Of a stretch of 64,000 nucleotides of DNA, positions 2,621 through 55,938 are shown in pieces (positions within the stretch are counted from its first letter, which is position 1; every line of letters begins with the position of its first letter). A model generated the notes under the pieces. It made no database searches, was not told where the DNA came from, and worked only from the letters and a program-made list of their open reading frames with translations. Source of the DNA: Bacteroidales bacterium (GTDB taxonomy: Bacteria > Bacteroidota > Bacteroidia > Bacteroidales > WCHB1-69); the NCBI GenBank assembly GCA_017554325.1, contig JAFZIP010000005.1, forward strand, positions 197,385-261,384. The letters run 5' to 3'. The position numbers and the translations under genes were made by a program.

Positions 2621-3268
2621 TTAATCTTTCACTCTGAAATTCAGCACCTGGAGGAAATCCCGGATGTCGGGGTTCTGTTCTTCCAGATTCTTCATTTTAT
2701 CATCCGAACTGTAGATGATTTTCTTCATCTCCATATTCTCATTCACAATAATCTCCAAATCATCCACATTGGTGGTGAAGTGGTTTCTCCAGTACTCCAG
2801 CACCGCCCGCTTGCGCATCTCGAACTGGTCTTTCTGAAAATCATTCAGCACCTCAGCCTTGATCACGCCATCTTCCAGCGTCGGGACCTTGTCTTTGAGC
2901 GGATGGTAGATCATCGGTGTGTTGGAGAACAGTTCATCGAAAAGCTGTTTCCAGCAGGTCTCGAAAACCTCCGGTTCCTGGGCCGGGGCCTCGGCCGTTT
3001 TCTCCGCGGCGGGTGTTTTTTCAGCGGCAGTCAACTGCTGGCCAGCAGTCTCACCTGTTGCAGCGGGTTGCGGGTCGGGGTTCTGCTCCGGCGTCGCGCT
3101 GGCCGCTTGGGCGCGCGGTGTCTCCAGCACACTCTGAATGGACGGGATCGGCTTTATGGGCGGCGTGCCCGGATACTTGAATGTCTGGTTCGAGATTTGC
3201 GGCTTATCGGAAAATGATACGGCTGCCGTACCCGTTTCCGTGGTGGATGCCGTCCCACCCTCTGGGTT
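2621..3268 (-). CDS. dnaX: dnaX, tau-specific C-terminal segment, in the +1 frame relative to the N-terminal ORF
   Basis: This frame is open from 3316 down to the stop at 2621-2623. It encodes a P/A/E/T-rich linker and then a globular C-terminal region (...FETCWKQLFDELFSNTPMIYHPLKDKV...). The only in-frame start codon is a GTG at 3130, so it is unlikely to be an independent gene. Confidence 0.7.
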   Translation of the reverse strand, partial: NPEGGTASTTETGTAAVSFSDKPQISNQTFKYPGTPPIKPIPSIQSVLETPRAQAASATPEQNPDPQPAATGETAGQQLTAAEKTPAAEKTAEAPAQEPEVFETCWKQLFDELFSNTPMIYHPLKDKVPTLEDGVIKAEVLNDFQKDQFEMRKRAVLEYWRNHFTTNVDDLEIIVNENMEMKKIIYSSDDKMKNLEEQNPDIRDFLQVLNFRVKD

Positions 3269-19579: not shown

Positions 19580-19587
19580 TATTTTTG
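19580..19587 (+). promoter_or_regulatory. -7 promoter box (TATTTTTG) driving the riboswitch-controlled transcript
   Basis: TAnnTTTG match 8 nt upstream of the riboswitch P1 stem. Confidence 0.55.
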
Positions 19588-19594
19588 CCGCGTT

Positions 19595-19747
19595 ATACGG
19601 TATGAAGGACAATTGTCCTTCTGGGAAACAGGTGCAAATCCTGTACAGTACCCGCTGCTGTGAATCTCAGCTGTTTTCAAAAAATGATGTCACTGTCGTA
19701 AGATGGGAAGACGTTTTGAAAGAGACAAGTCAGAAGACCGGCCGTAT
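19595..19747 (+). promoter_or_regulatory. Cobalamin (B12) riboswitch aptamer
   Basis: P1 pairs ATACGG (19595-19600) with CCGTAT (19742-19747). The conserved core is GGGAAACAGGTGCAAATCCTGTACAGTACCCGCTGCTGTGA, and the B12 box is AGTCAGAAGACCGGCC (19728-19745). Confidence 0.85.
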
Positions 19748-19834
19748 CACATGTTGTTAACCGCTTCGGGAAATAGGCGGGCCATATATGCCACCGGTTT
19801 TCCAAGCATTGTTTAATCGTAAAATGCCGTGGTA

Positions 19835-20905: not shown

Positions 20906-20940
20906 GGGGAGACGACATCACAATTATATTTGGGCAGAAC

Positions 20941-21018
20941 AAAAAAACGAGAGCTTTCGCTCCCGCTTTGGATGTTTTCACAACGGAATAATCCTTATTG
21001 TGAATTGCTTCAAAAGTG
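20941..21018 (-). ncRNA. tracrRNA: tracrRNA of the type II-C system
   Basis: The minus strand reads ACUUUUGAAGCAAUUCACAAU | AAGGAUUAUUCCGUU | GUGAAAACAUCCAAAGC | GGGAGC-GAAA-GCUCUC | GUUUUUUU. The anti-repeat (20997-21017) pairs over 21 bp with one bulged U to the first 22 nt of the CRISPR repeat (GUUGUGAAUUGCUUUCAAAAGU). It is followed by a nexus of the AAUAAGGnnnnnnCCGUU type, as in other Cas9 tracrRNAs, and by a GNRA-capped terminator hairpin plus a U-run. Confidence 0.85.
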
Positions 21019-21021
21019 CAG

Positions 21022-21029
21022 CAAAAATA
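21022..21029 (-). promoter_or_regulatory. -7 promoter box (TATTTTTG on the minus strand) for tracrRNA
   Basis: TAnnTTTG match immediately upstream of the anti-repeat. It predicts a transcription start at about 21015-21018. Confidence 0.6.
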
Positions 21030-21062
21030 CAACTTTTTATTGATAATCTGTTGCAAAATGAT

Positions 21063-21094: not shown

Positions 21095-24000
21095 ATGAAG
21101 AAAATCCTCGGTTTAGATTTGGGCACCAACAGCATCGGCTGGGCGGTGGTGAATGAAGCGGAAAACGCTAATGAACAATCTGCTATTGTCAAATTAGGCG
21201 CGCGCGTGAATCCATTGACGGTGGATGAACTGACCAATTTCGAAAAGGGAAAAAGCATTACGACCAATGCGGATCGCACCCTCAAACGGAGTATGCGACG
21301 CAATCTGCAACGATACAAACTTCGTCGCGAGAATCTTATTAAAGTGTTGAATGAGCACAGTTTCATCGACGAAGAAACGATTCTTTCTGAAAATGGCAAC
21401 AGGACTACTTTTGAAACATACCGGTGGCGTGCCAAGGCTGCGACAGAGGAAATTTCTTTACAAGAATTTGCTCGCGTGCTGCTCATGATTAACAAGAAAC
21501 GAGGGTACAAGAGCAGTCGTAAAGCGAAATCAACCGAAGAAGGACAACTGATTGATGGAATGGAGATTGCCAAACAACTCTATGAGAAGAACCTCACTCC
21601 GGGACAGTTATCATTACAGTTGCTGCAAAATGGAAAAAAACACCTTCCGGATTTCTATCGTTCAGACTTGCAGGAAGAATTTGACAGGGTTTGGTGCTCC
21701 CAATGCAAGTTTTATCCAGACAGACTAACAAATGATCTAAAAGAAGAATTGTGGGGAAAGAATAAAAAGCAGACATGGGCAATTCTTGAGAAACCATTGA
21801 ATATAGTTGGTATAAGGCGAGAGACAAAAGGAGCCGAATTAAAAGAGGAGAACTATAGATGGAGAAACAAAGCGTTGAATGAACGATTGGATTTGGAAGA
21901 ATTAGCTATCGTTTTGCAGGAAATCAATGGTCAGATTAGTAATGCAAGTGGTTATTTGGGAGATATTAGCGACCGTAGCAAGGCACTTTATTTCAATCAT
22001 CAAACGGTCGGTCAATATCAGATGTCGCAATTGGACAAGAATCCCAATTACAGCTTGAAGAATCAGGTGTTTTATAGACAAGATTATCTGAATGAGTTTG
22101 AAACTATCTGGGAAACACAAGCAAAATATCATAAGGAACTTACTTCAGAACTAAAAAAAGAGATTCGCGACATTGTCATTTTTTATCAGCGTCCACTGAA
22201 ATCGCAAAAAGGATTGATATCGTTCTGTGAGTTTGAAAGCCGACAAGTCGAAGTGGATATTGATGGGAAGAAGAAAATGAAAACTGTTGGCAACCGAGTC
22301 TGTCCAAAATCATCGCCTTTGTACCAAGAATTTAAAATATGGCAAATTTTAAATAATGTTCAAGTTTCAGGTGAAGGCATTAAAAAACGATTCCTGTTCC
22401 AGGAAGAAAAAGAGAAACTGTTTGCCGAATTGAATCACAGGGAAAAATTATCAAAAACAGAAGCCCTGAAACTGCTGTTTGGCAATCCAAAGAATTTGGA
22501 TTTGAATTATAAGGAACTTGACGGAAATCATACTCAAGCAGAATTGTTCAAAGCATATCAGTCTATCATAGAATTAAGTGGACACGGAGAATATGAATTT
22601 GCTAAGTTGCCTTCAGGAAAGGCTCTTGACATCGTTTCGGAAATATTCGATGGATTAGGTTTTAGTACAGCTATCTTGCGTTTTGATTCCTCGCTGGAGG
22701 GTCAGGCTTTGGAGCGCCAGCCCATGTACATGCTTTGGCATCTACTTTATTCTTTTGAAGGCGATAATTCTAATCTTGGCAATGAAAAATTGATAACTAA
22801 ATTGGGCGAACTATACGGATTTGACAAGGAATCCGCAACAGTGCTAGCCAATGTGGTTTTCCAACCCGATTATGGCAGTCTGAGTACAAAGGCCATTCGA
22901 AAAATATTGCCTCATTTGAAGGATGGTTTGGAATACAGTGTAGCATGTGAATATGCTGGATATAGACATTCCAAAGCTTCGCTTACAAAAGAAGAGATTG
23001 AACAAAAAGAACTTAAGGATAAGTTAGAACTACTACCCCGTAATAGTCTTCGTAACCCAGTTGTGGAGAAGATCCTGAACCAAATGGTGAATGTGGTCAA
23101 CTCTATTGTCGATGAGTATGGAAAACCTGATGAAATTCGCATTGAATTAGCAAGAGAATTGAAGAAATCTGCCAAAGAACGCGAAGAAATGACCAAATCC
23201 ATCAACGAAGCCTCTCGTTTGCATGAAGGGTATGTTAAAATCTTGCAGGGAGAACCGTTCTATTTGGATCTTGTTAGCCGAAATGATATAATTCGATACA
23301 AATTATACTTGGAGTTGAAAGACAATGGTTTCAAAACGCTCTATTCCAACACATATATTCCTCAAGAAAAGCTCTATAGCAAGGAGATTGACATTGAACA
23401 TATAATTCCACAAGCCAAATTGTTTGATGATTCATTCTCCAATAAAACCTTGGAATTAAGGCACATTAATTTAGAGAAGAGCAATGCTACCGCATACGAT
23501 TTTGTGCTTGGTAAGTATGGGGAAGATGGTGTACGGGATTACGAAAATAGAATAGAAAGACTTTACAATGACAAAGTTATCTCCAAGACCAAGCGTGACA
23601 AGTTGTTGATGCGGGAGGCTGATATCCCGAGCGGTTTCATCAACCGTGATTTGCGCGACTCTCAATATATTGCTAAAAAAGCCAAAGAAATGTTGGAGGG
23701 AATGGTGCGTTTTGTGGTTCCGACAACGGGCAGTGTTACAGATCGCTTGCGAGAAGATTGGCAATTGGTAGATGTCATGCAGGAACTCAACTGGGACAAA
23801 TACAATCAATTAGGATTAACGGAGGTAATAGAAGGTCGTGACGGTCAGCGGATCAGGCGCATAAAAGAATGGACCAAGCGTAACGACCATCGACATCATG
23901 CAATGGATGCGCTGACCATTGCCTTTACAAAACGCAGCTTCATACAGTACCTGAACAACCTGAACGCACGCGTACAAAAGGGCACGGATGAGTATTTCGA

Positions 24001-25354
24001 TTTGGACATGGTGGAGCTTTCGGATTTAAGCGAAGAGGAACGTGCCTCTGCAATTTATGGTATTGAGAAAAAAGAACTACATCGGGATAATCATGGAAAA
24101 CTGCGATTCAATCCACCCATGCCATTGGATGAATTTCGTGCCGAGGCCAAACGGCAACTAGAAGGCACTCTGATTTCCATCAAGGCAAAGAATAAGGTGG
24201 TGACGCAGAACATCAATGTTTCGAAGAAAAAAACAGGTAAAAATGAAAAGATACAGCTGACACCTCGTGGTCAGTTGCACTTGGAAACTGTATATGGAAG
24301 TGGCAAGCAGTATGTAACTAAAGAGGAGAAAGTTAACGCTGCATTTGATGCTGAGAAGATTATGACAGTGGCTAATAAATCTTATCGTGAGGCATTGTCA
24401 AGCCGCTTGCAACAGTATGATGGAGATCCCCAAAAAGCTTTTACTGGAAAAAACACTTTGGAAAAGAATCCGCTTTGGCTGAATGAACATCATACGGCCA
24501 AAGTTCCAGAAAAGGTTAAAACCGTTTCTTTCGAAAAGATTTATACTGTTCGTAAAGAGATTTCGCCTGAATTGAAACTTGAAAAAGTGGTTGATGTGGG
24601 CGTTCGCAATATTCTTAAAGAACGGTTAGCTGAATTTGGCGGCGATGCCAAGAAAGCCTTCTCCAATCTGGAAGACAATCCGATATGGTTGAACAAGGAA
24701 AAGGGTATTTCAATCAAGCGTGTTACTATCACAGGCATCAGCAATGCTGAAGCTTTGCACGACAAACGCGATAAGGAAGGTAAACTGATTCTTGATGAAA
24801 AAGGGAACAAGCAACCTGTGGATTTTGTCAATACCGGCAACAACCACCATGTGGCCATCTATCGGAAACCCGTGTTGGATAAAAATGGGTTACCTTTGCT
24901 TGATGATGATGGTCAACCCCAATATGAGTTGGACGAGAATATAGTTTCATTTTACGAAGCCACTTCCCGAGCTATGATGGGTCTTCCCATTATAGATAAA
25001 GATTTCAATAAAGAACAGGGTTGGCAATTCCTCTTTACTATGAAACAAAACGAGTACTTTGTATTTCCGCGCTATGATGAAGAAGGAAATATGACTTTCA
25101 ATCCATTAGACTACAGCGAGGAGTGGTACAAAAATCCGGCTAATTACGCTACTATCAGTCCGAATTTGTTTAGGGTACAGAAATTATCTTCCAAATATTA
25201 TGTTTATCGGCAGCATCTTGAAACAGTTGTTGAAGAAAACAATTCTTTAAGAGATATTACGTGGAAAAGAATCACTAATATGAATCATCTGAAAAACATT
25301 CTCAAAGTCAGAGTCAATCATATTGGCAAGATTGTGTCGGTGGGCGAATATTAA
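21095..25354 (+). CDS. cas9: Type II-C CRISPR-associated endonuclease Cas9 (1419 aa)
   Basis: RuvC-I (MKKILGLDLGTNSIGWAVV), an Arg-rich bridge helix (RTLKRSMRRNLQRYKLRRENL), RuvC-II (IRIELAREL), HNH (DIEHIIPQAKLFDDSFSNKTLELRHINLEKSN) and RuvC-III (NDHRHHAMDALTIAF). I chose the ATG at 21095 as the start. Confidence 0.97.
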   Translation: MKKILGLDLGTNSIGWAVVNEAENANEQSAIVKLGARVNPLTVDELTNFEKGKSITTNADRTLKRSMRRNLQRYKLRRENLIKVLNEHSFIDEETILSENGNRTTFETYRWRAKAATEEISLQEFARVLLMINKKRGYKSSRKAKSTEEGQLIDGMEIAKQLYEKNLTPGQLSLQLLQNGKKHLPDFYRSDLQEEFDRVWCSQCKFYPDRLTNDLKEELWGKNKKQTWAILEKPLNIVGIRRETKGAELKEENYRWRNKALNERLDLEELAIVLQEINGQISNASGYLGDISDRSKALYFNHQTVGQYQMSQLDKNPNYSLKNQVFYRQDYLNEFETIWETQAKYHKELTSELKKEIRDIVIFYQRPLKSQKGLISFCEFESRQVEVDIDGKKKMKTVGNRVCPKSSPLYQEFKIWQILNNVQVSGEGIKKRFLFQEEKEKLFAELNHREKLSKTEALKLLFGNPKNLDLNYKELDGNHTQAELFKAYQSIIELSGHGEYEFAKLPSGKALDIVSEIFDGLGFSTAILRFDSSLEGQALERQPMYMLWHLLYSFEGDNSNLGNEKLITKLGELYGFDKESATVLANVVFQPDYGSLSTKAIRKILPHLKDGLEYSVACEYAGYRHSKASLTKEEIEQKELKDKLELLPRNSLRNPVVEKILNQMVNVVNSIVDEYGKPDEIRIELARELKKSAKEREEMTKSINEASRLHEGYVKILQGEPFYLDLVSRNDIIRYKLYLELKDNGFKTLYSNTYIPQEKLYSKEIDIEHIIPQAKLFDDSFSNKTLELRHINLEKSNATAYDFVLGKYGEDGVRDYENRIERLYNDKVISKTKRDKLLMREADIPSGFINRDLRDSQYIAKKAKEMLEGMVRFVVPTTGSVTDRLREDWQLVDVMQELNWDKYNQLGLTEVIEGRDGQRIRRIKEWTKRNDHRHHAMDALTIAFTKRSFIQYLNNLNARVQKGTDEYFDLDMVELSDLSEEERASAIYGIEKKELHRDNHGKLRFNPPMPLDEFRAEAKRQLEGTLISIKAKNKVVTQNINVSKKKTGKNEKIQLTPRGQLHLETVYGSGKQYVTKEEKVNAAFDAEKIMTVANKSYREALSSRLQQYDGDPQKAFTGKNTLEKNPLWLNEHHTAKVPEKVKTVSFEKIYTVRKEISPELKLEKVVDVGVRNILKERLAEFGGDAKKAFSNLEDNPIWLNKEKGISIKRVTITGISNAEALHDKRDKEGKLILDEKGNKQPVDFVNTGNNHHVAIYRKPVLDKNGLPLLDDDGQPQYELDENIVSFYEATSRAMMGLPIIDKDFNKEQGWQFLFTMKQNEYFVFPRYDEEGNMTFNPLDYSEEWYKNPANYATISPNLFRVQKLSSKYYVYRQHLETVVEENNSLRDITWKRITNMNHLKNILKVRVNHIGKIVSVGEY

Positions 25355-25386: not shown

Positions 25387-26217
25387 ATGAGTAACATCAA
25401 ATTATTTCAAGACAAAAAAATCCGTTCTTCATGGAACGAAGTAGAGGAGCAATGGTATTTTTCCGTGGTGGATGTGGTGGAGGCACTGACGGACTCTACC
25501 AATCCCACAGACTATCTAAAAAAAATGCGAAAGCGTGATGAGGCTTTGGCTCTCTACCTGGGGACAAATTGTCCCCTGGTAGAAATGCTGACAGATACAG
25601 GAAAAATACGTAAAACATTGGCAGCAAATGTTAAAACGCTTTTCCGCATCATCCAATCCATCCCGTCACCCAAAGCAGAACCCTTCAAGCTGTGGCTTTC
25701 CCAAGTCGGCTACGAACGACTGCAAGAGATTGAAAATCCGGAACTCGCTCAAGAACGGATGAAAGAACTTTATGAAAAGAAGGGCTATCCGAAAGATTGG
25801 ATTGACAAGCGCCTTCGTGGTATTGCCATCCGTCAGAATCTGACCGATGAATGGAAGAAACGAGGCATAACAGAAGAAACGGATTTTGCTATTCTGACCG
25901 CCGAAATATCCAAAGCAACCTTCGGTATGACCCCTTCGGAATACAAAGAATTCAAGGGCCTGACGAAAAAGAACCAAAATCTACGCGACCACATGGATGA
26001 TTTGGAGTTGATTTTCACAATGCTGGGGGAACGCGTCACCACCGAAATATCGCAAAAAGAAGAACCCGAAACCTTTGCAGAAAGCAAAAAGATAGCGAAA
26101 CGAGGCGGAAAGGTGGCTGGTGTGGCACGAAAGGAAACTGAAAAAGAATTGAGCAGAAGTGTTTCAACTCCAAATAATTTCCTGCCGCCTTCGAAAAAAG
26201 ATAAACCTTTAACATAA
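25387..26217 (+). CDS. Bro-N domain / DinD-like (DNA-damage-inducible protein D family) protein embedded in the cas operon
   Basis: The N-terminus has the Bro-N pattern (FQDKKIRSSWNEVEEQWYFSVVDVVEALTDSTNPTDYLKKMRKR). The C-terminal half resembles E. coli DinD as I remember it (TDFAILTAEIS...KGLTKKNQNLRDHMDDLELIFTML versus DinD ATDFAIFQNH...KGLKKNQKILDHMGSTELAANLF). It starts 32 nt after the cas9 stop and ends 1 nt before the cas1 ATG. Confidence 0.7.
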   Translation: MSNIKLFQDKKIRSSWNEVEEQWYFSVVDVVEALTDSTNPTDYLKKMRKRDEALALYLGTNCPLVEMLTDTGKIRKTLAANVKTLFRIIQSIPSPKAEPFKLWLSQVGYERLQEIENPELAQERMKELYEKKGYPKDWIDKRLRGIAIRQNLTDEWKKRGITEETDFAILTAEISKATFGMTPSEYKEFKGLTKKNQNLRDHMDDLELIFTMLGERVTTEISQKEEPETFAESKKIAKRGGKVAGVARKETEKELSRSVSTPNNFLPPSKKDKPLT

Positions 26218-26218
26218 T

Positions 26219-27486
<1,268 letters not shown>

Positions 27487-27528
27487 AGAAAAAAGCATCT
27501 CTCAGGATTCGAATTTAGAAGGTTGCAA

Positions 27529-27562
27529 CAAAAAAATCGCTTGAAATCAAGCGATTTTTTTA
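27529..27562. terminator. Bidirectional rho-independent terminator between cas2 and the array
   Basis: A-run, then the stem ATCGCTTGA (27536-27544) pairing with TCAAGCGAT (27547-27555), then a T-run. It could stop cas-operon transcripts on the plus strand and array read-through on the minus strand. Confidence 0.75.
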
Positions 27563-27613
27563 ATTCTAAAAACCTTTGCAACGTACTGATTCCTTGTTGG
27601 TTTTGCAGGATCA

Positions 27614-28108
27614 GATGTTTACGACTGCAAAGATACAAACTTTTGAAAGCAATTCACAACAAAACTCGATTGACAGAACGAACCAAATCGATGTTTACGA
27701 CTGCAAAGATACAAACTTTTGAAAGCAATTCACAACAGATGATGGAGGAATGCCACACACATTATCGATGTTTACGACTGCAAAGATACAAACTTTTGAA
27801 AGCAATTCACAACATGATAATGAACACTTGGAACCGCTTAATAGATGTTTACGACTGCAAAGATACAAACTTTTGAAAGCAATTCACAACTGGCCAAGTT
27901 ATTCGTCTTGCGCCTTTTTGATGTTTACGACTGCAAAGATACAAACTTTTGAAAGCAATTCACAACAGTATTTCTGCAACTCCTGAATTTGCATTCGATG
28001 TTTACGACTGCAAAGATACAAACTTTTATATAAGATTGGCGGCGCCTCGGCAAACCGAGCAAGCTCGTTTGCTCTCGGCTTGCGCAATCTTTGAAAGCAA
28101 TTCACAAC
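27614..28108 (-). CRISPR. CRISPR array: 6 repeats of 47 nt (minus-strand sense GTTGTGAATTGCTTTCAAAAGTTTGTATCTTTGCAGTCGTAAACATC) and 5 spacers of 29-30 nt. The sixth repeat is split by a 64-nt insertion.
   Basis: Repeats lie at 27614-27660, 27690-27736, 27767-27813, 27844-27890 and 27920-27966, all identical, and at 27997-28108 (31 nt + 64-nt insert + 17 nt). Spacers lie at 27661-27689, 27737-27766, 27814-27843, 27891-27919 and 27967-27996. The strand is assigned from complementarity to the tracrRNA anti-repeat and from the canonical GTTGTG repeat start. Confidence 0.95.
28028..28091. repeat. 64-nt palindromic insertion inside CRISPR repeat 6 (copy A)
   Basis: ATATAAGATTGGCGGCGCCTCGGCAAACCGAGCAAGCTCGTTTGCTCTCGGCTTGCGCAATCTT. 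The terminal inverted 7-mers are AAGATTG and CAATCTT, with internal hairpin potential. It splits the repeat between ...ACTTTT and TGAAAGC.... Confidence 0.85.
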
Positions 28109-28139
28109 CATCTCTCTTTCAGTATCGTTATGTTGAAGA

Positions 28140-28463
28140 CTATTTGGGAAGGTATTGCTCAATTAGCTTGTAGAAATCGGGTATCTCTTCGTCGAGGTTC
28201 CATGCAGTTTTTGCCCATGATGTAAACATCACCATCTGCAGATTGTATGGCATATCGAAGTCCTTAAACTTGTGAGCCACATAGGTGGCACATTCACCTG
28301 AGATTATTCCTTCATGCTGGATGTAAACCCTTTCCATATCCCAATACCAGGATGCTGGGAACATGTCAAATGGGCAGGTGTCCTCACCATTATAGTACCG
28401 GCACTGTTTCATCAACTCCAGTTTCGTCATATCCTTACTTTTTTGAGAGTTCATACATGTCAT
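28140..28463 (-). CDS. Hypothetical 107-aa protein encoded between two insertion-bearing CRISPR repeats
   Basis: ORF MTCMNSQKSKDMTKLELMKQCRYYNGEDTCPFDMFPASWYWDMERVYIQHEG...; I recognise no family. Its codon and amino-acid composition look protein-like (W/Y/F/M-rich, not low-complexity). The ATG lies 22 nt downstream of a TAnnTTTG box in the degenerate repeat, and the stop lies 31 nt upstream of repeat 6. Confidence 0.6.
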   Translation of the reverse strand: MTCMNSQKSKDMTKLELMKQCRYYNGEDTCPFDMFPASWYWDMERVYIQHEGIISGECATYVAHKFKDFDMPYNLQMVMFTSWAKTAWNLDEEIPDFYKLIEQYLPK

Positions 28464-28469
28464 TCACAA

Positions 28470-28583
28470 GGTGTTTTCAGACCACAAAAATACCAAACTT
28501 TTATATAAGATTGGCGGCGCCTCGGCAAACCGAGCAAGCTCGTTTTCTCTCGGTTTGCGCAATCTTTGAAAGCAATTCACAAC
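28470..28583 (-). CRISPR. Degenerate seventh repeat carrying the same 64-nt insertion (copy B)
   Basis: Plus strand: GGTGTTTTCAGACCACAAAAATACCAAACTTTT + 64-nt insert + TGAAAGCAATTCACAAC. The right 17 nt are identical to the repeat. The left part is diverged but alignable, and on the minus strand it keeps a TATTTTTG box (28485-28492). Confidence 0.8.
28503..28566. repeat. 64-nt palindromic insertion, copy B (2 substitutions relative to copy A)
   Basis: Direct comparison with 28028-28091 shows it is identical except G->T and C->T in ...CTCGTTT[G/T]CTCTCGG[C/T]TTGCG.... Confidence 0.85.
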
Positions 28584-28608
28584 TAGATATACGCACCAAG
28601 CATGAGCC

Positions 28609-28710
28609 CCTGCGTGCCGTTGGCACGCCATCCCATTAACCCCGCACAGCTTGTCTGTGTGGGGTAGCGCAACGGTCCTCCCTGTCAGCCTGCGTGCCGG
28701 AGGCACGCCG
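28609..28710 (-). repeat. Three-hairpin intergenic element (copy 1, inverted relative to the copy at 55829)
   Basis: Hairpins are GCGTGCC-gtt-GGCACGC, CCCCGCACAG-cttgt-CTGTGTGGGG and GCGTGCC-gga-GGCACGC. Its reverse complement aligns with 55829-55938. Confidence 0.75.
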
Positions 28711-28748
28711 TATCTTGAAGTCGCAATTTGCGACATCAAGAAAATCAC

Positions 28749-28756
28749 TATCTTTG
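28749..28756 (+). promoter_or_regulatory. -7 promoter box (TATCTTTG) upstream of uvrC
   Basis: TAnnTTTG match 32 nt upstream of the uvrC ATG. Confidence 0.5.
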
Positions 28757-28787
28757 CCACCTATTTCTATCCACCACAACCACCCAC

Positions 28788-30572
28788 ATGTCCGAGGTCC
28801 GCGAAAATCTGAAACTCATTCTCAAATCCCTGCCAGAAAAGCCGGGCGTGTATCGGTTTTTAGACGAAAAGGGTACCATCATCTATGTGGGCAAGGCCAA
28901 ACGGCTAAAACGGCGCGTCTCCTCCTACTTCAACAAAGAACACGACTCGGCCAAAGTGCGCCTGCTCGTCACCAAAATCCGCGACATCCAAACCACCGTG
29001 GTCGATTCCGAATGGGAAGCCCTGCTCCTCGAAAACAGCATGATCAAGCAGTTCAAACCGCACTACAACATCATGCTCAAAGACGACAAATCCTACCCCT
29101 GGATTGCCGTCACCAAAGAGGAATTCCCGAGAATATTCCCCACGCGCCACCCCGAGCCTGACAAGATGCAGCTTTTCGGCCCCTACTCTTCCGTCAAACA
29201 GATGAACGTGCTGTTGGACACCATCAACGAGATGTTCCCGCTGCGCAAGTGCCGCCGGCTGGTGCACAACGACCGGCCTTGCATGCAATACCAAATTCAC
29301 CAGTGCGCCGCACCGTGCTGCGGACTCATCTCCGCGGAAGAATACCAGGAGAACATCCGCAAGAGTGTGGATATCATCAAAGGCAACCGGAAGGAGGTCA
29401 TCGGCAAACTCAAAGAAGAGATGATGAAACATGCTGACAAATGGGAGTTCGAGGAGGCCGGCAACATCAAGAAACAGATTGACATCTTGGAAAACTTTGT
29501 AATCAAATCCGTGGTGGTCAACCCGTCGCTCACCAACTTGGACGTGTTCGGCATGGAAGAGGACGAAGATTGCGCCTACATCAGTTTCCTGCGCATCGTT
29601 GATGGCGCCATCGTGCAGGCGCACACGCTGGAGATCAACAACAAGATGGACCGCAGCCAAGAGGATCTGCTCTGGGCCGGCATCCTGGAAATGGACGAGC
29701 GATTAGGCGGCCTATTTTCCGACATCTTAGTGCCTGCGATGCCCACGATCGAAACCGACAAGTGGTCGTTCCAGGTGCCGCAACGTGGCGACAAGCGCAA
29801 GCTGGTGGAATTAGCGGAGCGCAACGCCCATTTCTACATGCTGGAGAAGAAGAAACGACAGGACTTGGTCAATCCCGAGCGCCGGAGCCAGCGCGTGCTC
29901 ATGGCCCTGCAACAAGCATTAGGCATGAAGACCCTGCCCCGCCGCATCGAGTGCTTCGACAACTCCAACACCCAGGGCGAAGAACCCGTGGCCGCTATGA
30001 GCTGCTTTATCGACGGCAAACCTGCCAAGAAAGAATATCGCCATTTCAACATCAAAACCGTGGTCGGCGCCGACGACTTCGCCTCCATGGAGGAGGTGAT
30101 CTATCGCCGCTATCACCGACTACTGGAGGAGGAGAAGCCCCTGCCCGACCTCGTGGTCATCGATGGCGGCAAGGGACAGTTGAACGCCGCTTGGAAATCC
30201 ATCCAAGCTTTGCACATCGAAGACCGCCTGATGATGGTGGGCATCGCCAAGCGACTGGAAGACATCTACAAGGTGGGCGATGAATACCCCATCTATATCG
30301 ACAAGAAATCGGAGGCCCAGAAGCTGCTGCAACATGTGCGTGACGAGGTGCACCGTTTCGGCATTACGCACCATCGCAAGCGTCGGTCCAAAGCCAGCAT
30401 CTCCTCGGTTTTGGACAATGCACCCGGCATCGGCCCCGTGCTCAAACAACGGCTTTTGGGCAAATTCAAGAGCGTGGCCCGCATCCGCGAGGCCTCTCCG
30501 ACCGAGCTTTCCGAGCTCATTGGTCCCGCCAAGGCTGCACAACTGCGGGAATATCTCACTTCTGCACAATAG
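28788..30572 (+). CDS. uvrC: Excinuclease ABC subunit C
   Basis: GIY-YIG N-terminus (PGVYRFLDEKGTIIYVGKAKRLKRRVSSYF), a UVR domain, and the C-terminal endonuclease plus HhH region. I chose the ATG at 28788 as the start. Confidence 0.93.
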   Translation: MSEVRENLKLILKSLPEKPGVYRFLDEKGTIIYVGKAKRLKRRVSSYFNKEHDSAKVRLLVTKIRDIQTTVVDSEWEALLLENSMIKQFKPHYNIMLKDDKSYPWIAVTKEEFPRIFPTRHPEPDKMQLFGPYSSVKQMNVLLDTINEMFPLRKCRRLVHNDRPCMQYQIHQCAAPCCGLISAEEYQENIRKSVDIIKGNRKEVIGKLKEEMMKHADKWEFEEAGNIKKQIDILENFVIKSVVVNPSLTNLDVFGMEEDEDCAYISFLRIVDGAIVQAHTLEINNKMDRSQEDLLWAGILEMDERLGGLFSDILVPAMPTIETDKWSFQVPQRGDKRKLVELAERNAHFYMLEKKKRQDLVNPERRSQRVLMALQQALGMKTLPRRIECFDNSNTQGEEPVAAMSCFIDGKPAKKEYRHFNIKTVVGADDFASMEEVIYRRYHRLLEEEKPLPDLVVIDGGKGQLNAAWKSIQALHIEDRLMMVGIAKRLEDIYKVGDEYPIYIDKKSEAQKLLQHVRDEVHRFGITHHRKRRSKASISSVLDNAPGIGPVLKQRLLGKFKSVARIREASPTELSELIGPAKAAQLREYLTSAQ

Positions 30573-55828: not shown

Positions 55829-55938
55829 GGCGTGCCTTCGGCACGCGGGATGTATCAGGGTGCCGTGACCATCATGCAATCCACCCCACACAGACAAGCT
55901 GTGCGGGGTTATTGGGACAGCGTGCTTTCAGCACGCGG
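55829..55938 (+). repeat. Three-hairpin intergenic element (copy 2)
   Basis: Hairpins are GGCGTGCC-ttc-GGCACGC, CCCCACACAG-acaag-CTGTGCGGGG and GCGTGCT-ttc-AGCACGC. It aligns with the reverse complement of 28609-28710. Confidence 0.75.

Follow-up and report, generated by a model that had tools for sequence, protein, structure and literature searches.

The stretch of DNA analyzed here (the window) comprises 64,000 nt of contig JAFZIP010000005.1 (assembly GCA_017554325.1) from an uncultured Bacteroidales bacterium and carries a locus that is a type II-C CRISPR-Cas9 system (CRISPR, clustered regularly interspaced short palindromic repeats). At one end of its array, two CRISPR repeats are split by copies of a 64-nt palindromic element, and these copies enclose a gene of phage origin. 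Judged from sequence comparison, the element is not a dispersed repeat; it is a conserved array-terminal insertion in the so-called extra repeat and is shared by a clade of II-C arrays from Bacteroidales. Contigs and loci that were compared with the window are referred to by L numbers.

Two Repeats Are Split at the Same Nucleotide by a 64-nt Palindrome

Repeat 6 (R6) of the array is composed of GATGTTTACGACTGCAAAGATACAAACTTTT (27997-28027), a 64-nt insert (28028-28091), and TGAAAGCAATTCACAAC (28092-28108), and a degenerate unit, here called unit D, is built correspondingly from GGTGTTTTCAGACCACAAAAATACCAAACTTTT (28470-28502), an insert (28503-28566), and TGAAAGCAATTCACAAC (28567-28583). In both repeats the insertion point lies after ...AAACTTTT and before TGAAAGCAATTCACAAC, and the two inserts differ by 2 substitutions. 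Including the adjoining repeat sequence, the units form a direct repeat of 90 nt with 98% identity (28019-28108 and 28494-28583). When the 64-kb window was searched with a 60-mer and up to 3 mismatches were allowed, exactly two copies were found (0 and 2 mismatches), and none of 100 shuffled sequences gave a match. When the window was scanned with filters off, a covariance model that combines all variants recovered the same two copies with 97 and 91 bits (97.3 bits for copy 1 in R6 and 91.1 bits for copy 2 in unit D), the next-best score of 18.9 bits being the reverse strand of copy 1. An assembly artefact is excluded because two independent metagenome assemblies (L001 and L021) carry the identical cassette. 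On folding, each of the two strands gave a stem of ~24 bp, with energies of -26.2 and -26.4 kcal/mol and z values of -2.9 and -3.4. The hairpin consists of three stacked helices of 7 + 7 + 10 bp, is imperfect, and carries the terminal inverted repeats AAGATTG...CAATCTT. A preferred strand for the hairpin was sought by folding, whereby both strands turned out to be about equally stable.

The anti-repeat of the trans-activating CRISPR RNA (tracrRNA), TTGAAGCAATTCACAAT, equals the plus strand of the repeats, so that the CRISPR RNAs (crRNAs) come from the minus strand; they read GUUGUGAAUUGCUUUCA... and run from the uvrC side in the direction of cas2. The system type and this strand are established by the canonical tracrRNA and the cas genes. 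In the crRNA sense, every repeat is closed in its 3' part by TATCTTTG. The promoter-bearing part of R6 (27997-28027, minus strand) corresponds to repeat positions 1-31, with TATCTTTG as -7 box (complement of 28011-28018), and the degenerate promoter-bearing part of unit D (28470-28502, minus strand) has kept a -7 box as well (TATTTTTG, complement of 28485-28492), which faces the open reading frame (ORF) between the two units. Both TATCTTTG and TATTTTTG match TAnnTTTG, the consensus of the Bacteroidetes -7 promoter motif. The repeat-borne TATCTTTG would fit the rule that II-C repeats carry their own promoters, as it is worded in a passage of PMC13187072. On the other side of the insert lies the 17-nt handle that is predicted to pair with the tracrRNA (GTTGTGAATTGCTTTCA on the minus strand; 28092-28108 in R6). 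The handle of unit D (28567-28583, minus strand) is that of the true extra repeat and forms the outermost edge of the array, after which the flank continues as in strains that lack the ORF.

A previous reading of this DNA, made from its letters without database searches (the sequence-only reading), had described most of these features. It stated that two repeats are split at one nucleotide by one 64-nt palindrome with copies 2 substitutions apart, and this was confirmed in the sequence; its claim of an imperfect hairpin on either strand with inverted termini was borne out by folding, and the 60-mer and covariance-model searches agree with its statement that the 64 kb hold no other copy. Likewise, its view that the insert parts the tracrRNA-pairing handle from the promoter-bearing part of the repeat holds, given the canonical tracrRNA anti-repeat and the presumed -7 box.

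Several known structures were considered for the element and its surroundings. A Rho-independent terminator was rejected, since the stem is present but a U-tract is absent on both strands (the 3' flanks are UGAAAGCAAUU on the plus strand and AUAUAAAAGUUUG on the minus strand), and a terminator scan of 27400-28900 found none. No Rfam family matched the element region at the gathering or E<=10 thresholds, and no hammerhead core was seen by eye in the element sequence. An integron attC-like cassette site was dismissed because there is no integrase nearby and no GTTRRRY core. Unit D together with its hairpin-rich flank does not represent a tracrRNA either, as the flank lacks an AAGG...CCG nexus and the canonical tracrRNA lies upstream of cas9.

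The Element Is Found at the Ends of Related Arrays

The split repeats of the window are located at the array end opposite cas2 and the leader (27148-27613), and the same holds for eight same-species contigs and for L040-L044. The same-species contigs were fetched with the window Cas2, independently of the element, and in 8/8 of their array ends the cas-distal repeat is split after ...AAACTTTT, even though their spacer sets are almost wholly different. In six of these eight, the split repeat is followed directly by the flank of unit D, with no ORF in between. Three further lineages with different repeat tails and different downstream genes also carry the element. In the L040/L041/L044 lineage (repeat tail GTTGTTACTGTCTGC...) and in the L042 lineage (repeat tail GTTGTGATTGAGTGC...) it is located in the cas-distal repeat, and in the L032/L043 lineage (repeat tail GTTGTATCAGTCTGC...) the split repeat is the second-to-last one, with a 29-nt spacer beyond it. 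Altogether, arrays with the element span four repeat variants, the insertion nucleotide is identical in all of them, and the split repeat is the last one in most arrays and the second-to-last in one lineage.

An intact last repeat without the element was found in the close relatives L035, L036, and L047. In L030, a sister array that shares its Cas2 protein with L032, the extra repeat (L030 4030-4146) is split elsewhere by an unrelated insert of ~87 nt. This insert falls inside the -7 box and holds two small hairpins, one of which resembles GGACGC...GCGTCC hairpins in the flank of L032.

Collection scans were performed with exact words. A 22-mer from the stem, compared with 185,579 representative GTDB genomes, gave one match only (L019), which was put down to chance since just the 22-mer is shared and the gammaproteobacterial context is unrelated. 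The element had 0 matches in two scans of IMG/VR. A scan of metagenomes of the Joint Genome Institute (JGI) with the two termini led to five loci, all five of them in CRISPR arrays, and the covariance model, applied to 25 further loci, returned only the array copies already known. Thus, the part of the sequence-only reading that considered a dispersed element, either a miniature inverted-repeat transposable element (MITE) or a repetitive extragenic palindromic (REP) sequence, has to be given up, as every copy found sits in a CRISPR array at one nucleotide.

The Split Repeat Is the Extra Repeat of a Type II-C Array

According to the passages on this subject in PMC13187072 and PMC12080349, new spacers of II-C arrays enter by the leader, and the repeat at the far end, which is the oldest and the first to be transcribed and has no spacer, is the "extra repeat," which could yield an "extraneous crRNA" (ecrRNA). 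Feussner et al. (2025, Microlife, PMC12080349) report in this context that 60% of II-C extra repeats are mutated, with a median tracrRNA interaction of -26 versus -31 kcal/mol. The decay of extra repeats in II-C arrays is a recent topic, and in the parts of the surveys that deal with counter-measures (PMC12080349), point mutations, an upstream Rho-independent terminator, and a guide-sequestering hairpin are described. Insertions are not among the strategies in the Results of PMC12080349, and the companion survey has neither "insertion" nor "indel."

By its place in the array, the element-bearing repeat is such an extra repeat. Unit D has no invader-derived spacer, as chromosomal flank and uvrC lie beyond it, and for R6 the "spacer" is a phage fragment of 361 bp. 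For an intact repeat, pairing with the tracrRNA is predicted to comprise ~26 bp (-30.3 kcal/mol), compared to 15 bp (-19.2 kcal/mol) for the 17-nt handle; in L020/L022, L032, and L040 the handles adjoining the element carry point mutations, and the predicted pairing is weaker still. The insertion removes the distal duplex and moves the handle 64 nt away from the -7 box. Regulation in the manner of small CRISPR-associated RNAs (scaRNAs) by the would-be guides beside the two handles was also considered and discarded, since neither guide has a second match with <=3 mismatches in the window.

The unit shares with the extra repeats of Feussner et al., in the sections of PMC12080349 on their position and pairing, that it is the cas-distal, oldest, spacerless repeat, that its tracrRNA pairing is weaker, and that promoters are located in the repeats. 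It differs from the strategies presented there in that the repeat is interrupted by a 64-nt palindrome, on the 3' side of a 17-nt handle that is often intact, and in that the nucleotide of insertion is fixed across lineages. With the leader-repeat hairpins of II-A and type VI arrays (Liao et al. 2022; EMBO J 2026, PMC13187072) it has in common a stable hairpin at the ecrRNA-forming repeat; however, in the description given in PMC13187072, it is the leader RNA that pairs with the repeat there and hides it. The element presents a different state of the extra repeat, namely a conserved palindromic insertion at one fixed nucleotide in several array lineages. Array-finding software would probably cut off the split repeat, so that such repeats are likely under-counted. 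Moreover, a perfect 17-nt handle followed by a hairpin offers a natural test of what Cas9 and RNase III need of the repeat:anti-repeat duplex.

A Phage Gene Was Captured Between Two Copies of the Split Repeat

The fragment between R6 and unit D (28109-28469, 361 bp, minus strand) is phage-derived. It contains an ORF (28143-28430, with the stop codon at 28140-28142) that lies on the minus strand, i.e., in the crRNA sense, and encodes 96 aa from the ATG at 28430, a start that was set by alignment, or 107 aa from an upstream ATG at 28463. The predicted product has no Pfam domain and no anti-CRISPR (Acr) match; its sole PHROG match is phrog_19606, to which no function is assigned, and its AlphaFold model, with a predicted local distance difference test score (pLDDT) of 74, gave no PDB fold match with E<1. 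The family is small, with 13 members among 5.8 billion proteins. Its nearest homologues (72-81% identity) are located in phages, beside portal, capsid, and ADP-ribosyltransferase genes, and others belong to small integrative elements that encode an integrase along with a replication protein of the Phage_CRI type; none of the phage and integrative-element loci that were searched has a repeat or the 64-mer. The DNA homology to the phage copies reaches the repeat junction and ends inside the loop of the phage gene's terminator, where the phage-side flank is CAGACGCA in L008/L045. Since the homology stops exactly at the repeat, the fragment is a piece of phage DNA that holds exactly one gene, and the presence of two element copies in this array is due to its capture between two copies of the split repeat. 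The sequence-only reading had named a duplication of the repeat unit in one of its candidate explanations, and the duplication is supported; it overlooked the complete ORF in the 361 bp between the copies and did not make the link to the extra repeat.

The box TATTTTTG kept by unit D is positioned to act as the ORF promoter, and a transcript starting there would run through the ORF into the handle and hairpin of R6. A complete phage gene can sit in an array under a predicted, repeat-derived promoter. A further-reaching interpretation would be that the split extra repeat is no scar but a sequence-constrained array-end module, the palindrome of which may let both halves act as one integration site (e.g., by extrusion), so that duplication by the adaptation or recombination machinery could trap whole foreign genes that are then expressed from the repeat promoter, with transcripts tagged by a handle that binds Cas9/tracrRNA, the phage protein being a regulator or anti-CRISPR-like. 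We regard this as unlikely; if it were true, the CRISPR array would double as a small gene-cassette platform.

A whole split repeat on each side of the fragment is, as a sequence pattern, the signature of a target-repeat duplication or of recombination between repeat-bearing molecules. The left halves of unit D and R6 differ at ~8/31 positions, and the other 81 nt differ at 2. As the left halves diverge far more than the rest, later recombination with ordinary repeats has probably renewed the inner left half. A derivation of the degenerate left half of unit D from an L035-type repeat was also tried by hand alignment and given up, as 26/33 identical positions versus 25/33 to the window repeat do not discriminate. 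Of the two diagnostic sites in the element of L020/L022, one resembles R6 and the other unit D, a mosaic that would fit a loss of the ORF by crossover between two copies. Thus, strains without the ORF most likely lost the gene by recombination between the 90-nt direct repeats. Since the split repeat is common in arrays without the ORF, the element is older than the gene capture. With regard to a possible entry of the 361-bp fragment as an oversized spacer through the adaptation machinery, a search for protospacers and a protospacer adjacent motif (PAM) with 115 spacers against 50,697 phage records and the fetched loci of mobile genetic elements (MGEs) found no protospacer.

Origin and Persistence of the Element

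The GCAT variants of the element, one of the two forms of a two-base junction polymorphism (ATAT/GCAT), have the arrangement AAACT[TTTG]CATAAGATTG...GCAATC[TTTG]AAAGC. If the element is deleted along with one TTTG, exactly the intact repeat results, which would be expected of a small inverted-repeat element with a target duplication but is ambiguous because of the T-run; the flanks are TTT in the ATAT variant and TTTG in the GCAT variant. The explanation that we favor, and to which we give somewhat better than even chances, is that a single MITE-like insertion disabled a dispensable extra repeat and was tolerated. According to this explanation, an ancestral array would have received one small MITE-like insertion, which has GATTG/CAATC as its termini and is flanked by a duplication of 3-4 bp, TTT(G), from the T-run of the repeat. 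It would have disabled the extra repeat by weakening the predicted tracrRNA pairing and by removing the distal duplex where RNase III would act. Since this duplex is lost and the handle lies 64 nt from the -7 box, a read-through transcript would be a poor ecrRNA substrate. Recombination between repeats may subsequently have deleted spacers and brought the left half of the terminal repeat into line with the present consensus, which would be consistent with the spacer turnover; L027 and L028 are spacer-deletion derivatives of L025. Such recombination would stop at the last homology and leave the element, the handle, and the flank in place at the outer edge of the array, so that no selection would be needed for their persistence. 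In the window, phage DNA with the 96-aa gene would then have become sandwiched between copies of the split repeat, whereby the outer copy may drive the gene and the inner copy may give its transcript a handle-plus-hairpin 3' end.

In its build, the element resembles the Correia elements of Neisseria as well as REP sequences and bacterial interspersed mosaic elements (BIMEs), as it is likewise short and non-coding, ends in inverted repeats, and can form a strong hairpin from both strands; a short target duplication may be present too. The Correia and REP/BIME families are dispersed in tens to hundreds of copies per genome, whereas the element was found only inside CRISPR repeats and at one position per array. 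Thus, from the first option offered by the sequence-only reading, a MITE/REP-like insertion followed by duplication, the duplication and the MITE-like ends are supported and the dispersal is not. Its second option was a structured module by which the array is ended or insulated. The end position has strong support, as the element occupies the cas-distal last or second-to-last repeat in all comparison contigs; insulation is unsupported, as there is no U-tract. For the third option, a functional variant repeat, no positive evidence was found, since there is no covariation and polymorphism is at the level of neighboring non-coding DNA.

A number of points weigh against the tolerated insertion. 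The TTT(G) duplication sits in a T-run and could be a coincidence, and neither a donor copy nor a transposase is known for the element. The collection scans relied on exact words and could miss diverged dispersed copies, and the coverage of the bacterium's own genome was 64 kb. A simple recent duplication does not fit the divergence between the left halves of unit D and R6 without extra steps. Finally, a neutral ancestral relic should have diverged more than the element has; its high identity points either to sequence constraint or to a more recent exchange of array ends.

The last point leads to an alternative that we consider possible but doubtful, namely that the hairpin is a selected array-end module which blocks the production or processing of ecrRNA or shields the first repeat promoter. 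Such a module could act as an RNase III substrate or as a roadblock and would constitute a fourth strategy beside those described for II-C arrays. Between the window and the L032 lineage, the element is 84% identical, compared to 80% for cas2, 51% for the third codon positions of cas2, and ~65% for the leader, so that the element has changed far less between lineages than the synonymous sites of cas2 or the leader have. Its 5' arm (AAGATTGGCGGCGCCTC) shows no change even in L032, a contig that was found without use of the search pattern, and most substitutions are located in the loop, bulges, the internal loop, or helix ends or give G-U pairs. Also in favor of selection, the element always occupies the extra-repeat end, the predicted tracrRNA pairing energy drops considerably, and the concept of blocking ecrRNAs has precedent in the passages of PMC13187072 and PMC12080349 on this subject. 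However, no compensatory changes were detected: in 0/24 pairs both sides had changed with pairing kept, and the covariation score was not above that of shuffles. By our own count, ~9 events fell in 16 unpaired sites versus ~12 in 48 paired sites, an excess that is not significant and to which the search pattern adds a bias. Counted within the species, the element has 0.094 segregating sites per column, compared to 0.079 for the flank, 0.063 for the leader, and 0.020 for cas2; the polymorphism of the element thus equals that of flanking DNA, and a neutral-like pattern is seen in these alignments. Furthermore, the element is missing in the close relatives L030, L035, L036, and L047, the hairpin is not followed by a U-tract on either strand, and strains without the ORF show no evident promoter upstream of the handle, so that the hairpin may never be transcribed in the crRNA sense. 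The ATAT/GCAT polymorphism is common to the window species and the L040 lineage, and the identity between lineages could reflect an exchange of array ends. Taken together, the evidence for a selected function is mixed, and we lean towards a tolerated insertion. If the element is selected, it adds a mechanism to the ecrRNA story; a neutral element would be useful for tracing array ancestry, as it lasts longer than any spacer.

The shared polymorphism could also hint at horizontal spread and, along with the high identity across lineages, the inverted termini, the TTT(G) duplication, and the single insertion point in four repeat variants, would suit an active or recent mobile element which targets the CTTTTGAAAG core of repeats and of which copies survive only in the harmless extra repeat. 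However, no copy outside arrays was found in any collection scanned, there is at most one per array apart from the duplication in the window, no transposase candidate is known, and 60 nt would be very small; we regard this explanation as very unlikely.

Solitary Repeat Units in Viruses Resemble the Split Repeat

The handle, in the form GTTGTGAATTGCTTTCAAA, is present in 28 IMG/VR contigs (L058-L085), most of which have one solitary unit. In L084, around 3085-3103 (minus strand), a 19-nt handle runs directly into a hairpin and a T-run, and in ~10 human-associated viral contigs, which represent one family, a near-complete repeat is followed by a terminator. Thus, phages of this group carry a handle-plus-hairpin layout like that of the host array. 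From their sequence, the viral units are candidates for RNA anti-CRISPRs against this Cas9 group. The order of handle and hairpin is the same as in the phage solitary repeat units or RNA anti-CRISPRs of Camara-Wilpert et al. (2023), as far as they are portrayed where PMC13187072 cites them. Such units, as portrayed there, are located on viruses and have true terminators with T-runs, whereas the window unit belongs to a host array, has no T-run, and has another hairpin sequence. The window units themselves were rejected as phage solitary repeat units or RNA anti-CRISPRs, since both are part of a chromosomal array that adjoins cas genes.

The viral units would be in line with an origin of the split repeat from a mobile element which carried solitary repeat units and an anti-CRISPR-like gene and recombined into the array via repeat homology, with the hairpin as terminator or stabilizer of a decoy RNA. 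The 28 contigs with mostly single units, the handle-plus-hairpin layout of L084, and the phage-borne ORF family argue for such an origin. However, the 64-mer and the ORF are absent from all 28 handle-carrying viral contigs, and of the viral or MGE loci examined, none has the 64-mer and none combines the ORF with a repeat unit. In addition, the split repeat is widespread in arrays without the ORF, and the ORF has no Acr, Pfam, or PDB match. We therefore judge this origin to be very unlikely.

The CRISPR-Cas9 Locus and Its Surroundings

The locus has the gene order tracrRNA, cas9, Bro-N gene, cas1, cas2, leader, and array. The gene families around it and the names given to relatives of its Cas2 likewise point to an uncultured Bacteroidales bacterium. 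The tracrRNA gene (20938-21036, minus strand) lies upstream of cas9 and is divergent from it. It consists of the anti-repeat (21033->20997), which is the sole repeat-like match outside the array in the window (20997-21033, minus strand), the nexus AAGGATTATTCCG, and a terminator hairpin with a T-run, and it co-folds with the repeat. The cas9 gene (21095-25354, plus strand) encodes 1419 aa from the ATG at 21095, a length also found in L001 and L020, and shows the Pfam domains HNH_4 and RuvC_III. Between cas9 and cas1 lies an accessory, phage-like gene with a Bro-N domain (25387-26217, plus strand; 276 aa; Pfam Bro-N, 3e-09; phrog_15286, 2e-107). Among relatives this slot contains Bro-N alone, RhuM alone (L036), RhuM and Bro-N (L053-L055), or nothing (L031), and it looks like a slot for phage-like accessory genes inside the II-C cas operon. 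An association of the Bro-N gene with the 64-nt element was considered and dismissed, since the element is missing from L035 and L047, which have Bro-N, and Bro-N is missing from the L031/L032 lineage, which has the element. The genes cas1 (26219-27151; Pfam Cas_Cas1) and cas2 (27148-27486; Pfam CRISPR_Cas2) follow on the plus strand.

The leader (27487-27613) contains a bidirectional, terminator-like hairpin (27530-27561), which is self-complementary with an A-run on one side and a T-run on the other. Between the window, L031, L030, and L035, the frame of A-run and T-run is kept, and stem and loop vary (TCGCTTG/CAAGCGA versus GTCGCC/GGCGAC), which contrasts with the near-identical stems of the 64-mer over an equal evolutionary distance. 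The ordinary part of the array (27614-27996, minus strand in the crRNA sense) comprises five 47-nt repeats, which read GATGTTTACGACTGCAAAGATACAAACTTTTGAAAGCAATTCACAAC on the plus strand, and five spacers of 29-30 nt. In L022 (4467-4580) and L001 (5881-6467), the split repeat comes directly after the leader, with no ordinary repeat or spacer. Either the array has collapsed fully, or the assembly collapsed over spacers that vary between strains.

The array-distal flank (28584-28727) is followed by uvrC (28788-30572, plus strand). The spacer between array and uvrC (28600-28740) is filled by GC-rich, REP-like hairpins, with CCTGCGTGCCGNNGGCACGCC occurring twice and, in addition, CCCCGCACAG...CTGTGTGGGG. 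A 35-nt piece of these hairpins recurs 27 kb away at 55883-55917 (minus strand), and the copy number of the block varies between strains. In the same-species contig L026 (2562-3609), different DNA is present past the extra repeat, with a gene for an XRE-type helix-turn-helix protein (HTH_3) and a second small ORF on the opposite strand. Thus, the array-distal flank is a site of structural variation.

On the other side of the locus, a cobalamin riboswitch (RF00174, 96 bits; 19581-19760, plus strand) is located 5' of a DUF5074/beta-propeller gene, shortly before the tracrRNA gene. In the L040/L041/L044 lineage, a converging thioredoxin-like gene has its terminator ~200 nt past the array end; this terminator contains AAACATCCAAAGCGGG, followed by a hairpin and a T-run. 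This 16-mer also starts the terminator of the window tracrRNA, which may be a coincidence or reflect a shared type of terminator.

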